DNA of 20,526 nucleotides, taken from Albugo candida. Taxonomy: Eukaryota. Below are positions 2,365 to 9,662 of the stretch, one piece after another (within the stretch, counting starts at the first letter, position 1; each line of letters starts with the position of its first letter). The notes beneath the pieces are model-generated. The model was not told the DNA's origin and made no database searches. It saw nothing but the letters and a program-made list of their open reading frames with translations. The stretch spans positions 248,001-268,526 of the forward strand of contig JBDOQK010000051.1 of the NCBI GenBank assembly GCA_040437565.1, read 5' to 3'. The translations under genes were made by a program, and so were the position numbers.

Positions 2365-2477
2365 GCACCAATCACGATCCGATCTGAAAAAGCCGTACCG
2401 CAGTCATGGTACATTGAGGGAGTATCGTTACTTCAAAGTGCGCTTGTCATTTAAATTCATTATATGTTCCCTTGTAG

Positions 2478-3361
2478 TCAAATGTAATAAATTCGATAGA
2501 TTGTTCGCGCAATTGGCAATTCGCCGTTGTAAAACGCTGTCTCAATCATTAATTTCCCACTAGGTCATAGAACGATTGGAACTCGCGATCGAAATTTTTG
2601 TATATGATACGAACCTTATGGTACTAGGATCCAACATGTTACCCCTTCCAGCTGATTCAATACTTTGTTGCCATGTATTTGTGGATCCCGGAATCACAAA
2701 CCCAAAAGTAAATCGCCACTCTGTATACCGAACTTAACATATGCAACATGCACCGTACACAGTGTACCTTCAAAGCAGCTTCCGTTGAGATAAACTCGTT
2801 GTTCTAACCGAAAATGCTCGATTTCTTCGGTTGAAGTGAAATTTATTTCTCTGGTGACTGTACCACATTGGAGTATCTCTTCTGGTATACGCGCTAATAC
2901 ACGAATCACGTCAATTAAAAACTTGATTCATGTTGTGTCTCGTCAACTTTCCTTCTTGTTCGATACGAAAAACGTCTTCACTCCTAGAACCGTACTTTAG
3001 AATAACGAATGTGTTTATTGATACGTAAAGAAACCATTCATCCGTTTGCCACAAAACTTTTCCGGTCTCTTCACATCGCATATTCATGAAATTTCTTACA
3101 ATCAAAAAAGTATAAATCAATTTGAAATGTGGTAGTAGACGCCTCGTACATCCTTAAGCCTTTGCAAATTTGTTGCGCACGCTGATTCATAGAAACTTCA
3201 ATTCGACCAGCCTTTGGTTCGTGAAGCTGTTTCCATTCCTCCTCGACCTCCGAATCCAATTTGGCTTCCTCATTCGCGATAGCGTTTCCTTTCGTCAGCG
3301 TCGGTTGTAAACGTTTAACTTTCTGAAAATAATAGGTGGATTCAGTGTTCTTACTTTCCAT
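2478..3361 (-). CDS. PDE6D: PDE-delta (cGMP phosphodiesterase 6 delta subunit / prenyl-binding ciliary cargo carrier), ~205 aa, 6 exons
   Basis: Exons 3361-3150, 3094-3035, 2983-2952, 2893-2768, 2720-2615, 2559-2478. Spliced product 'RAQQICKGLRINFMNMRCEETGKVLWQ...[70 protein letters not shown]...ISGKLMIETAFYNGELPIARTIYRIYYI*' is collinear with PDE6D. Confidence 0.93.
2894..2951 (-). other. Putative non-canonical GA-AG spliceosomal intron (PDE6D intron 3, 58 nt)
   Basis: Minus strand: CAA GAA G|GAAAGTTGACG...TTTAATTGACGTGATTCGTGTATTAG|CG CGT ATA. Removing it restores IEQE-A-RIP (human VEHE-A-RVP). A canonical in-frame GT alternative exists at 2966. Confidence 0.6.
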
Positions 3362-3560
3362 GCGTGCTCAACGGTGATATAACAATTCACCTCAACTCCA
3401 AACAGTCACATTTTACTCAACACAACAGCGACATATGAGGGCACCTCCAAATACGAAAGTAGTGAACTAAACGAACGTAATAAGATCGCTATCAGATTTA
3501 GTAAAAGGATGTTTCGTGCCAAATAAACACTTTTGACATTTGACTTATGCGAATTAGAGC

Positions 3561-4342
3561 TTAAGAGCGCGATCTGCGTCGATGGGTCCGACGAGATGAA
3601 GTTCGAGAGCGAGATCGAGATTTTGATCGCGAGGCCGATCGACGTCTGCGGCGTGCAGGAGACGGAGACCTTGATCGAGAAGAAGATCGTGATCGGGATG
3701 GGGATCGCGAACGAGCATTTGATCGAGATGATGAACGTTCTCGACGAACGCGTACTGTTCTCCCATCAAGCTTTGACCGATCGAGTTTTCGTATCGCTCG
3801 TTCCATTTCGTCATACGTTGCGAATGAACCCACACCGTTCCCTGAGTGATCTACATTTGTGTGGACCACATCTCCACCTCTGCGGAAGAAATCTTTGAGG
3901 TCTTGCCAGCTAATTTTCGAGGATAAATTTGACACGGTGACCCGATATTGGGTGCCAAATCGTTTGTTGGATGACGTATCACGCGTTTGGTTTGGTCCGC
4001 TACGTGAGATTTCGACTCGGATTTTAGATCCGAGAAGCTCAATGCTATATACACGATATCGTCAGACCAGGTGAAGAGAGATGGAAATGTAGACGTACCC
4101 GTTGGACTCACGGACGGCATCATCAGCTCCTTGCGAGTCTTCGTATTCCTAAATTTGTGTAAACGCTTATGTGAGTACTCGTAAATACGTTTGGTAGTGT
4201 GATGTACAATGAAAGCGAATGCCGGTGGTCGTGATGGCACCTTCAGACGGATGCAAGCTATTTGACCATGTTTTGCGAAATGCGAACGGAGAGTTTCTTC
4301 ATCAATTTCTGTGGGAAGGTTTCCTACGAATATCGCCGTCAT
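3561..4342 (-). CDS. Serine/arginine-rich splicing factor, SRSF1 (ASF/SF2)-like, ~222 aa
   Basis: Exons 4342-4208, 4148-4099, 4044-3561 (GT-AG introns of 59 and 54 nt). RRM1 'IFVGNLP...PPAFAFI|EYED', pseudo-RRM2 with the diagnostic SWQDLKD motif, and a C-terminal RS-dipeptide domain. Confidence 0.93.
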
Positions 4343-4557
4343 TGGCTCGCTGATTTAATGTGACGGAAACGTGAACGCTTCGTCGTGACGCGATCCACAC
4401 ACAAAATAAGAGTCCACATTGTTAAGTACTGTGAGCTTTTTTTTAGAAGACTCCTTAGTAACGGGTCGAAACCCGCTGAAGAATGTGTAATGGGTATACA
4501 CTATACATCCAAATTGCAGAAGAATTGACTACAATTCAGAAATAACTGTTGCACGAA
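4343..4557. promoter_or_regulatory. Probable bidirectional promoter between the SR protein and CHIP genes
   Basis: Divergent ATGs at 4342 (-) and 4558 (+), 215 bp apart. Inferred from geometry only. Confidence 0.5.
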
Positions 4558-5534: not shown

Positions 5535-5680
5535 CAGTAATGATGTATCAATCAATTAGAATGCAGCCATCTTATTTTGAACCAATCCCGTTCAGACAAG
5601 ACCGTGCATCAGCAGTCTTTATATGATAGTTTCTCCTTAGTATAATTTTATAATGCAACCTTTCATCATATCATAAAATT

Positions 5681-7348
5681 ATGGCATCGCCCGGTCAAAA
5701 GGCGTTTTTCGTGGTGCTTGATGACCACAATCGAGAGCATTTTCGCACGTATCCTTCACAGCAATCCCCCATGCGTCATATAGATCTCTCTTCCACCGGC
5801 AGTCCCAACATTCCCAAAAACACTACGGGATCTTCATTCTATGAACGTCGTGGGCTCAGTACAAGCGCGTTTCTCGAAAGCAGTTTGGTTTCTAATAATG
5901 ATGCGAATGATGGTAAAAAGGTACCACCACTTCGATTCCAGGCGATTTCCGTGCGGTATATGGTGCTTGGATTGTTTCTTGGCATCGCACTCGGTATCCT
6001 GCTGGCTTTCTTCAAGTCGAATTCGGTTGTCATCAATCTGATTTCGTTGCCAGGAGATCTTTTTACACGTGCGATCAAATGCATTGTCATACCGTATATC
6101 TTCTCAGCGGTAGCTGTCGCTTCTGGGGACATCATGTTTGCGGGTAAGGGCTTTGTGATCGGCTTCAAGACTTTGAAAATATTTGTGCTTTTTTGGATCC
6201 TATCGGCATCATTGGGTGTCGGAGTCGCATTAGCAAGTCGATCATTTTTCAAGTTGGAAGGCCAAGAAGAGCATCACATAGAGTATAATTACGTCCAATT
6301 GAGTTGTGATCAAGTCGGTGGAACTCTCCAATCCTTTCTGCAAAATGATTCCATTCGATGCGGAAAGGCTGATTCTGGTGCCAAAGTGAATTTTGAAGTA
6401 AAAGAACAAACCAATTTTTACAAAACGCATTCCATCATGAAAGTATCCATCAATGATCTGATTCTGACATCAATTGGGCGTATAGTCTCTGAGAATATTG
6501 CGTTGAGTTTGATAATGATGGAAACATCGGCGGTTGTCGTATTTGCATCGTTTCTTGGGATCGTCGCGGCACAAAATTACTACGAAAAAACAAGGAGAGT
6601 GAATTATTTATATTGCGTGCTCTTACAATTGCGGAATTCGTGTTATTGGGCGTTGGAGTGTATCATGCTTCTTGCTCCGTTGGCGGTAATGTCGATTATT
6701 GCTGGATCACTTGCTTCCAATCAGCACTTCAGTGCGTATACGCAAGCGGGAGCTTATGTGGGGGCTTGTGCAATTGCAATCATACTTCAAATGTTTGTCA
6801 TGTACCCAATTGTTGTGTTTTTGTGGACGCGATGTAATCCATATGCTCACATGCGGTTCATGATTCGAGCATATTTGTATGCTTTTGGATTGTCGTCGTC
6901 GTTGGCGGCAACACCGGCTACATTATCTTGCTTACAGAAATCGCGACTTTGCTCCATCACGCTGGCCGAATTCATTGTATCATTTGGCTCGACCATGAAT
7001 TTAAGCACTTCCGGTCTTGTGATTCCCATTTCGTGCGTGTATCTGGCAGAATCGGCTGGTTTCGGTAGTAGTTTGACGGTGTGGCAAATACTCTCGCTTC
7101 TGGTATTGTCGATATTTTCGTGTACTGGCGTTCCACCTGTGCCTCAAGGTCGGACTGTTATCTTAATAACAATCTTCACAAGCGTTTTCGGAACCGATAC
7201 GCTTCCTCAAACGTTTGCAACCTACATGGTTGCAGACTCCATCGTCGATCGAATGGTCACCGTAGGAAACGTGAATGATGACGCACTAGTAGTAAAAATC
7301 GTTGCAGAAACCACGGATGAGACTGTTCTTACATGGTTGCACAGTTAA
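5681..7348 (+). CDS. Dicarboxylate/amino acid:cation symporter (DAACS/SLC1) family protein, 555 aa, divergent
   Basis: Intronless and multi-TM. 'ISLPGDLFTRAIKCIVIP' (TM2), HP1 'SSSLAATP', TM8 'DRMVTVGNVNDD'. Confidence 0.9.
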   Translation: MASPGQKAFFVVLDDHNREHFRTYPSQQSPMRHIDLSSTGSPNIPKNTTGSSFYERRGLSTSAFLESSLVSNNDANDGKKVPPLRFQAISVRYMVLGLFLGIALGILLAFFKSNSVVINLISLPGDLFTRAIKCIVIPYIFSAVAVASGDIMFAGKGFVIGFKTLKIFVLFWILSASLGVGVALASRSFFKLEGQEEHHIEYNYVQLSCDQVGGTLQSFLQNDSIRCGKADSGAKVNFEVKEQTNFYKTHSIMKVSINDLILTSIGRIVSENIALSLIMMETSAVVVFASFLGIVAAQNYYEKTRRVNYLYCVLLQLRNSCYWALECIMLLAPLAVMSIIAGSLASNQHFSAYTQAGAYVGACAIAIILQMFVMYPIVVFLWTRCNPYAHMRFMIRAYLYAFGLSSSLAATPATLSCLQKSRLCSITLAEFIVSFGSTMNLSTSGLVIPISCVYLAESAGFGSSLTVWQILSLLVLSIFSCTGVPPVPQGRTVILITIFTSVFGTDTLPQTFATYMVADSIVDRMVTVGNVNDDALVVKIVAETTDETVLTWLHS

Positions 7349-7520
7349 GTTTGTCATGGTGTCGTCGAATTGTGCAGAAAGTAATCACAATGATGCGTTC
7401 CAATGTAACGTTTGGAAGCTCATTTGATTGGCACATATTCACTTGATTGTTGTAATTGTTTATGACTGCCACAACGACATTCGCTGAGCCCTGTCGACTG
7501 CATTTTCTCCATTTCTGCTC

Positions 7521-9662
7521 ATGCATAGTGATGACGACGAGAGTAAATGTGTCAATACATCGCCAGTTGTCTTGATCGACCAAGAAGTTGTTGAAACTTT
7601 ACAAAATTGTCATATAAACTCCACCGCCAATACTTCAGACAAAAATGGTACAAATTCGAGTCCAGACGACAATAGCGACGAATATGGTACTCAGGAAAGT
7701 TTTACACAGCAACGACGAAGTGATAGTGAAATCTCTTCGACTGAGGATGAAAACGACCTGAGGAGTGAAAATGAAAGCACTTCGGCGATTCGCGACCCAT
7801 ACATCAGTATCTCAGAGATGAGTTGCGCTTCTTCTAGAACGGCTCATTCCTTCCACTCGATGTCGTCTCTTTCAGATGTTGGCATGTTTGTGATTGATGA
7901 GAGCCGACCATTCACGAGTGAAAGTGCGTCATTCTCTTCTGGTACATGTTCCGGTTCCCGATCATTTTCGCGTTCCAAAGAGCCACAAACCGATTTTCGA
8001 GCTCGAAGGAATGAAGACCAATGGCAGCAATCATCTTCTTTTGATTCCACAGAGCATGCGTTCGATTTGCATGGAGATTTGGAATCAACCAAGAGAGGGA
8101 ACGGAAGATCTGACTTTTGGCTCGAATTGGAAAGCAAACGGAAGAATTCCGGAAGTGACTCCCAAAGCGGCAATCAACAGCCGACAGATCGTTCAGACGC
8201 ACTACGTATATCGATGCTGTCTGTCTTGGCTAGCATATTCCTAGGTATAGCATTTGGTCTGCTCCTCATTCTTTTTGAAGTTGATCCTTTATTACTCCAA
8301 TGGGTCGCACTTCCAGGCAATCTGTTCTATCGAGCACTCAAATGCATCATTGTTCCATATATATTTTGCGCGGTGGCAGTTGCAATGGGTGATATCTCGT
8401 TTGCAGGTCGCGTGTCAGCTCTAGGACTTGAAACAGCAAAAATATTTGCTCTCATTTGGTTCGTATCCACAAGTATCGGGATGCTCGTAGCCTTGGGGTT
8501 CCGTTATCATTTTCGTGATATCGGTACCGCAATTTCCACGAGCACCAATGCAGTAGCTCTTTTGTGTCACGATAAAAAGGTATTCCAAATGAATGGTACA
8601 CGTTTGGAATGCTCTTCCACAGAGGATGAAACACTAATAGCAGAAATCGGCGAAGGCGTCAGAAGTGTCGTACTTGGAAGTAGCCCGTCAACTTTTGTCT
8701 TCCACGACTTGAACGATTACTTTCGCAAGACACCAGGTAGCCAGATCCGACTACAGAATCAACTGTTGGACCAAGCCTTGCACTTTACGTCTTCAAATAT
8801 CGTCAAATCAATGTATAAAATGGAGCTTCTAGGAGTCATCACATTTGCTTCTCTTTTGGGCGTAATTGCTGGGCAGCAATATTACGCAAAGACAAGAAAG
8901 GTGAATTACCTGTACGCGACGCTGTTACAGCTTCGAAACGCATACTTTTGGGCCATTGAAGTGATTATTAGCTTGACACCGGGTGCTATGATTTCGTTCA
9001 TAGCTGGTTTACTGGCTCAAAATCAAGATATGTTCCAATACAAACGGATCGCGTATCTTTACATGGTGGCCATATTATCGGCAATCGTGCTCCAAATGTT
9101 TATTGCGCTTCCACTATTGGTGCTTGTATTCACTCGAAGGAATCCGTATGAGCACATGCGATACATGCTTCACGCATATCTGTTTGCATTCGCTGTCTCT
9201 TCGTCGCTAGCAACCACTCCAGTCACATTGAGTTGCATGAAAAAGTCGCGCGTTTGTACAACTGCCATCGCAAACTTTGTGATTTCATTTGGTACGGTTG
9301 CGAACTTAAGTGCGGCGGGTTTGCTCATTCCGATTGCGACTATATTTCTTGCGGAAACTGCTGGTCTAGGAACAGATCTTACAATTTTCAAAATGGTAGC
9401 ACTCGTTTTGATTTCATGGTTTGGGTGCATCGGTACAGCTCCTATTCCAAATGGACATGTAGTTTTATTCTCGACGGCGTATACTGCGATTATGGGCGTT
9501 CGGGAGCTACCATCCACGTACGCGCTTATGCTGGTTGTAGATTTTTTTATCGATCGGATTCTCACCGTTGTGAATGTGAATGATGATGCAATGGCGCTCA
9601 AAATCATTGCAGAAACAATTGACGAGACAGTTATCCAGGAGCTGGCGGGACAGCGATGTTGA
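7521..9662 (+). CDS. DAACS/SLC1 family protein, 713 aa, tandem paralogue with a long Ser/acidic N-terminal extension
   Basis: Intronless. 'VALPGNLFYRALKCIIVP', 'SSSLATTP', 'DRILTVVNVNDD'. Shares 'YYxKTRxVNYLYxxLLQLRN' with the upstream paralogue. Confidence 0.9.
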   Translation: MHSDDDESKCVNTSPVVLIDQEVVETLQNCHINSTANTSDKNGTNSSPDDNSDEYGTQESFTQQRRSDSEISSTEDENDLRSENESTSAIRDPYISISEMSCASSRTAHSFHSMSSLSDVGMFVIDESRPFTSESASFSSGTCSGSRSFSRSKEPQTDFRARRNEDQWQQSSSFDSTEHAFDLHGDLESTKRGNGRSDFWLELESKRKNSGSDSQSGNQQPTDRSDALRISMLSVLASIFLGIAFGLLLILFEVDPLLLQWVALPGNLFYRALKCIIVPYIFCAVAVAMGDISFAGRVSALGLETAKIFALIWFVSTSIGMLVALGFRYHFRDIGTAISTSTNAVALLCHDKKVFQMNGTRLECSSTEDETLIAEIGEGVRSVVLGSSPSTFVFHDLNDYFRKTPGSQIRLQNQLLDQALHFTSSNIVKSMYKMELLGVITFASLLGVIAGQQYYAKTRKVNYLYATLLQLRNAYFWAIEVIISLTPGAMISFIAGLLAQNQDMFQYKRIAYLYMVAILSAIVLQMFIALPLLVLVFTRRNPYEHMRYMLHAYLFAFAVSSSLATTPVTLSCMKKSRVCTTAIANFVISFGTVANLSAAGLLIPIATIFLAETAGLGTDLTIFKMVALVLISWFGCIGTAPIPNGHVVLFSTAYTAIMGVRELPSTYALMLVVDFFIDRILTVVNVNDDAMALKIIAETIDETVIQELAGQRC

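Follow-up and report, generated by a model that had tools for sequence, protein, structure and literature searches.

The PDE6D-like gene of the white rust Albugo candida, which encodes a predicted prenyl-binding protein, very probably contains a non-canonical U2-type intron whose 5' splice site reads GA in place of the almost universal GT. The intron lies on the minus strand at 2894-2951 of the window, by which we mean the whole stretch of 20,526 nucleotides that was analysed. It is 58 nt long, interrupts the reading frame in phase 1, and has the donor AAG/GAAAGT and the acceptor TATTAG/CG (the slash marks the cut). The upstream exon ends with GAACAAGAAG at 2952, the intron opens with GAAAGTTGAC at 2951 and closes with GTGTATTAG at 2894, and the next exon follows directly with CGCGTATACC at 2893. 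A branch-like motif, TTGAC, places a candidate branch A 18 nt upstream of the acceptor. When the sequence is read through in frame 1, a stop is met after 13 codons, and an intron is therefore required at this position. A first-pass annotation, made from the letters alone, had proposed this intron in an oomycete host; the sequence was read again and the product rebuilt, and its coordinates, phase and length proved correct, as did the host, since the organism is A. candida. Its numbering has to be changed, as what it called intron 3 is the fourth of the six introns removed in the RNA-derived contig described below.

Sequencing runs that hold this stretch provided the evidence for the junction. 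The run search returned 20 holders, none of them on record as RNA, among which X17 to X20 were guessed to be RNA. Contigs from X17, X19 and X20, and from X8, a DNA run not flagged as an assembly source, were mapped on 2400-3500. One X17 contig (9231 nt, depth 440.6) aligned in seven pieces separated by six joints, with 0 other letters. Five of these joints read CT..AC on the plus strand, that is GT..AG on the gene strand, two of them after a one-base shift of the cut, and the removal of five ordinary GT..AG introns means that the contig came from spliced RNA and not from DNA. The sixth joint, 2893/2952, skips 2894-2951 and reads CT..TC on the plus strand, which is GA..AG on the strand of the gene. 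The joined sequence, GAACAAGAAG followed by CGCGTATA (2952 to 2893, 0 mismatches), is exactly the one predicted for a functional GA donor. The evidence for this junction is a single contig from a single run, itself guessed to be RNA. The X20 run, which belongs to another study, covered 2644-2860 and supported only the intron at 2721-2767, and cover in X19 was absent between 2716 and 3238, placing the GA junction outside it. Chance is not the issue as an explanation, because the claim concerns a single junction that the RNA contig displays directly.

Since two letters fit either side of the 2893/2952 joint, the position of the cut was examined over all shifts. Only shifts of 0, +1 and +2 gave the mRNA found in X17, and these correspond to GA..AG, GG..TA and AG..TT, none of which is canonical; thus, no canonical GT, GC or AT donor explains the junction. 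The nearby GT dinucleotides do not account for it either, as cuts at GT 2947 or GT 2966 predict sequences unlike the X17 contig. As had been stated, the GT at 2947-2946 falls in phase 2, and reading the sequence revealed no acceptor to match it. The GT at 2966-2965, proposed earlier as an in-phase alternative donor, indeed costs five codons and gives a product of 178 aa rather than 183 aa (...DVF-P-RIP...). The suggestion that splicing had moved to this site found no support, since no 2966 junction is present in the X17 contig, although contigs are prone to drop rare forms and a minor isoform may still use it.

The other proposal, that the donor reflects a base-call error, was addressed with genomic DNA. 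The X8 contig shows 0 differences from the window between 2400 and 3413. This run was not flagged as a source of the assembly, and since its bases at the site agree, an error of assembly or base calling is unlikely. Four DNA runs from four studies contained 1.00 of 101 sampled words, although all four are marked as possible assembly sources; the words are spaced about 11 nt apart, and base 2950 was very probably covered by them.

With the joints of the X17 contig and the translation in hand, the gene could be laid out on the minus strand as seven exons and six introns. Exon 1 contributes the coding end ATGGAAA (3355-3361) downstream of a 5' UTR that reaches beyond 3500, and intron 1 (3289-3354, 66 nt; joint 3287/3354, GT..AG after a cut shift of +1) begins only 7 nt past the start codon, 3361-3359. 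An earlier placement of the start had to be corrected accordingly, as the ATG at 3349 falls within this first intron. That ATG opens a 98-aa open reading frame at 3071-3367, which must be a decoy given its position in the intron; a database protein from a diverged strain, P0159, corresponds to a read-through frame of this kind. The N-terminus MERNAI... given by the start at 3361-3359 is the same in the public A. candida model P0160. Exon 2 (3150-3288, 139 nt) encodes an N-terminal extension that has no Pfam match but resembles two database proteins at 100% and 98% identity. It is followed by intron 2 (3095-3149, 55 nt, GT..AG), exon 3 (3035-3094, 60 nt) and intron 3 (2984-3034, 51 nt; joint 2982/3034, GT..AG after a cut shift of +1). 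Exon 4 (2952-2983, 32 nt) was seen as the contig piece 2952-2982, the neighbouring cut being shifted by 1, and encodes the ten residues before the GA junction, besides supplying the first base of the Ala codon that the intron interrupts.

Downstream of the GA-AG intron, exon 5 (2768-2893, 126 nt) is separated by intron 5 (2721-2767, 47 nt, GT..AG), the one that was found independently in the X20 contig, from exon 6 (2615-2720, 106 nt). Intron 6 (2560-2614, 55 nt, GT..AG) precedes exon 7, whose coding part (2478-2559, within the contig piece 2400-2559) ends at the stop TGA, 2480-2478, and whose 3' UTR runs on below 2478. An X19 contig covering 2465-2715 (depth 5.8) is unbroken through intron 6; this run therefore contains DNA or unspliced RNA here, although it was guessed to be RNA. 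The six introns of this gene measure 47-66 nt; a range of 47-61 nt had been quoted earlier for the conserved genes.

The X17 contig overruns both ends of the mapped interval, so that RNA cover reaches the neighbouring genes. This suggests that neighbouring transcripts are closely packed or overlapping, and a contig that spans two genes is no proof of a single transcript. On the minus strand, open reading frames at 3561-4061 and 3851-4354 match the Pfam family RRM_1, and the sequence from 3527 is repetitive, rich in GATCG and GAGATCG, and reads as Arg/Ser/Asp repeats; 3527-4354 probably represents a gene for a splicing factor of the SR type, interrupted by introns of its own. On the plus strand, the open reading frames 5654-7348 and 7488-9662 each show a match to PF00375, the sodium:dicarboxylate symporter family, and look like a tandem pair. 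The first shares 100% identity with a protein annotated as an amino acid transporter of A. candida, and 79% with an A. laibachii protein.

The mRNA obtained by removing the six introns encodes 183 residues, and its reading frame is intact across the GA junction. Exons 5 and 6 both match Pfam GMP_PDE_delta, PF05351, exon 5 as part of the domain core with an E-value of 4.2e-09 (37.1 bits, profile positions 51-91) and exon 6 with 1.8e-08 (35 bits, profile positions 94-124), the cut-off for the family being 25 bits. A HMMER search with exon 5 against 1.84 billion representatives returned 317 proteins at E <= 0.001. By sequence homology, the gene belongs to the GMP-PDE delta / PDE6D family, from which its prenyl-binding role is predicted. 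When the product of GA splicing was aligned with 15 relatives (4 library proteins and 11 metagenome loci), it was free of gaps across the junction, whereas the product of the 2966 donor showed a five-residue gap absent from all 15.

The public annotation of the gene departs from the RNA at precisely this intron. The model, P0160 (150 aa), was found by a search with exon 2, and when it was rebuilt from the window it differed at 1 of 150 residues. It reads ten codons past the GA donor and then joins a GT at 2922 to an AG at 2719, thereby skipping exon 5 entirely; this "intron" (2719-2922, minus strand, 204 nt, GT..AG) is contradicted by the X17 contig. A protein homology search with the 41 aa of exon 5 found nothing, because the public model lacks that exon. 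A gene model that allowed only GT-AG introns is the likely cause of the error. As a consequence, users of P0160 are given a broken PDE6D, in which an exon of the domain core is missing and ten intron-derived residues are added, and other A. candida genes may be mis-modelled in the same way.

The sequence of the donor offers a possible explanation for its use. Apart from the A at +2, the site is strong, matching CAGGTAAGT at seven of nine positions, the best score among the six donors of the gene (the others match at 4 to 6). Its only mismatches are at +2 and at -3, where A is common, and the U2-type consensus is otherwise kept, with AG before the cut, A at +3 and AGT at +4 to +6. The donor AAG/GAAAGT would pair with the 5' end of U1 snRNA at all consensus positions but +2, and this near-perfect match, together with the upstream AG and the A at +3, may offset the missing U, allowing a cut before G 2951. 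Use of the normal TAG acceptor at 2894 would then yield the in-frame mRNA of 183 aa with an intact GMP_PDE_delta domain. This pairing logic, like the efficiency of splicing at the site and its constancy across life stages, we infer from the sequence and the single junction.

Other routes to a non-canonical junction were considered and set aside. U12-type introns carry the donor motif RTATCCTT, and the absence of this motif here excludes that class. Editing of A to I at +2 was rejected by reasoning, as the edited base would be read as G and not as U. An Rfam scan of the whole window matched no RNA family, and hence no snRNA. On a quick look, the other AGGA..GT strings in the window either lay inside open frames or were without signs of a donor.

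The position of the intron was then compared across other eukaryotes, using the alignment of exon-5 relatives to scan metagenomes, and the best 80 of 164 relatives were analysed. Coding sequence continues across the position in 38 of the 80 loci, which are intron-less there or represent transcripts. The other 42 lose homology precisely at the point where an AG meets the final two bases of the Ala codon, in keeping with the earlier statement that animals have a phase-1 intron in the same codon. The end of the upstream exon could be placed in 15 of these 42 loci, and the readable donors were all G/GT; the 15 represent about 8 distinct sequences, and judged from their residues the proteins appear animal-type. 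In the remaining 27 the upstream exon was not placed: 19 lacked any HSP, and in 8 the HSPs were weak or implausible. In many library proteins, too, homology starts at A-R-[IVL]-P after unrelated residues, for example in P0065, P0067, P0038 and P0112 and in the oomycete-like P0002, P0005, P0009 and P0020. The breaks in 42 of 80 loci and the many library proteins that start there indicate that the phase-1 position is old and widely shared. The best 80 of 164 contained no close Albugo relative, none of them being at least 75% identical to the seven oomycete-like proteins. The proteins P0005, P0020, P0151 and P0160 cannot distinguish GA from GT at the donor, because it is spanned by a Gly codon whose third base is silent. 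A different arrangement was observed in several loci (among them L025, L027, L044, L045, L048 and L053), which have no intron at the Ala codon and in which homology breaks ~8 to 9 residues upstream, suggesting an intron at another position in that lineage.

Among the alternatives to a normally functioning GA donor, the one that survives best is a leaky or regulated site, in which the GA donor is poor and a sizeable share of transcripts retains the intron or uses another donor, so that a weak step tunes the amount of the PDE6D-like protein, for example in flagellated zoospores. A change of U to A at +2 counts among the "dead-end" mutations, which hinder the second splicing step, and this speaks for leakiness. 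The expression stands in the title of Brackenridge et al. (2003), as cited in PMC7072748. Further support comes from P0151 and P0029, which are encoded on 9.5-kb contigs of an Albugo-like relative and have extra residues exactly at the position of the GA intron, the three other intron positions being joined in both. In P0151, the insert is in frame, stop-free and 28 residues long (about 84 nt), and lies between ...EQE and A-H-L-P. These extra residues could be the orthologous intron retained in RNA, or could belong to a genome that lost its other introns; the contigs could be RNA or DNA, and the base at their donor is unreadable from protein. The assembled X17 contig, however, has the spliced form at the GA junction, and neither retention nor an alternative junction was seen here, in contigs that show the dominant form only. 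We regard a leaky site as rather unlikely.

The insert in P0151 at this position, together with the failure of the public A. candida model there, also raises a broader reading, in which Albugo tolerates GA donors more widely, or the old phase-1 intron is a deliberately weak step across the genus. This is speculative, and we think it quite improbable. If GA donors are indeed more widespread, the same cause would have led to faulty models for a set of A. candida genes; should the step be deliberately weak, splicing of the GA intron could gate a flagellum-trafficking protein during zoospore formation.

It is very unlikely that the isolate that supplied the RNA has a GT donor, and that the GA of the window is a recent strain polymorphism that may be misspliced. 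A spliced contig cannot show its own donor base, and diverged strains do exist, since some runs contain only 0.80 of the sampled words. Nevertheless, the X17 contig is identical to the window at all 769 mapped bases, UTRs included, and also agrees with it in the codon for residue 15, which is S in both and W in the public A. candida protein. Moreover, it would be odd for P0160 to read through the donor if a perfect G/GTAAGT stood in that other assembly, and the rebuilt gene shows no other sign of decay. Finally, a join produced by reverse-transcriptase template switching, or by mis-assembly, at a 2-nt repeat (CT/CT on the plus strand) is scarcely credible, for although two letters do fit either side of the GA joint, such overlap is usual (four of the five other X17 joints have 1 or 2 letters, and one has 0), the join restores both the frame and the conserved domain without a gap, and it falls at the intron position common to 42 of 80 loci of other eukaryotes.

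A functional GA 5' splice site thus remains our preferred reading, and it can be set beside known cases. GA-AG introns are a rare but documented class, to which the Albugo PDE6D intron adds one RNA-supported oomycete case, in agreement with the idea that loss of the U at +2 can be offset by strong U1 pairing. For oomycetes, Phytophthora sojae is mentioned as having GC-AG and CT-AC introns (PMC7072748), and in one re-annotation GC and AT were the only additional donors admitted (PMC5010894). No oomycete GA-AG intron was named in the titles and abstract openings among the matches listed, and the supplementary per-species counts of PMC7072748 may bear on this point.

The largest known sets are those of Oikopleura dioica and Eurytemora affinis, where GA-AG introns are present in high numbers, exceeding GC-AG (Frey and Pucker, 2020; PMC7072748). 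The supported GA donors of these species have a conserved AG upstream and an A downstream, and a variant U1 has been proposed for Eurytemora (PMC7072748). The Albugo intron resembles them in being U2-type, in combining a GA donor that has AG upstream and A downstream with a normal AG acceptor, and, in the case of Oikopleura, whose GA-AG introns are also short, in its length of 58 nt. It differs in number, GA-AG introns being frequent in those species, while one case is known in Albugo. A sparser occurrence is described in Blastocystis ST1, with 59 GA-AG introns, about 0.16% of all, in a paper that also cites Symbiodinium (Gentekaki et al., 2017; PMC5608401). Blastocystis is, like Albugo, a stramenopile, but it represents another lineage and the introns are in other genes, with no link to the PDE6D gene.

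Single genes provide closer comparisons. The GA 5' splice site of the human FGFR genes is reported to be efficiently used and to depend on a canonical GT located 6 nt upstream (Brackenridge et al., 2003, as cited in PMC4176328 and PMC7072748). In Albugo, a GA donor is likewise used in a conserved gene, but the closest GT on the upstream side lies at a distance of 15 nt (2966-2965) and the next GT is at +5/+6; as there is no GT 6 nt upstream, the FGFR mechanism does not apply. In plants, GA-AG introns account for about 0.01% of introns in five genomes, and intron 12 of Trema orientalis SYMRK carries a functional GA allele, for which relatives have the ancestral GC and which was tested by gene editing (PMC10668435). 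The Albugo gene is similar to SYMRK in that a GA-AG intron functions in one particular gene, and different in that SYMRK has the gene-editing test and the known GC ancestor, whereas the Albugo case was read from the genomic sequence and one contig. The consequences for annotation are most like those for ITPR1, whose GA-AG junction is given wrongly in the GENCODE annotation (Parada et al., 2014; PMC4176328). In both genes, a GA-AG junction gives rise to a wrong public model when software insists on GT-AG; however, the error in ITPR1 is a small shift, whereas the Albugo model P0160 loses a whole exon of 126 nt.
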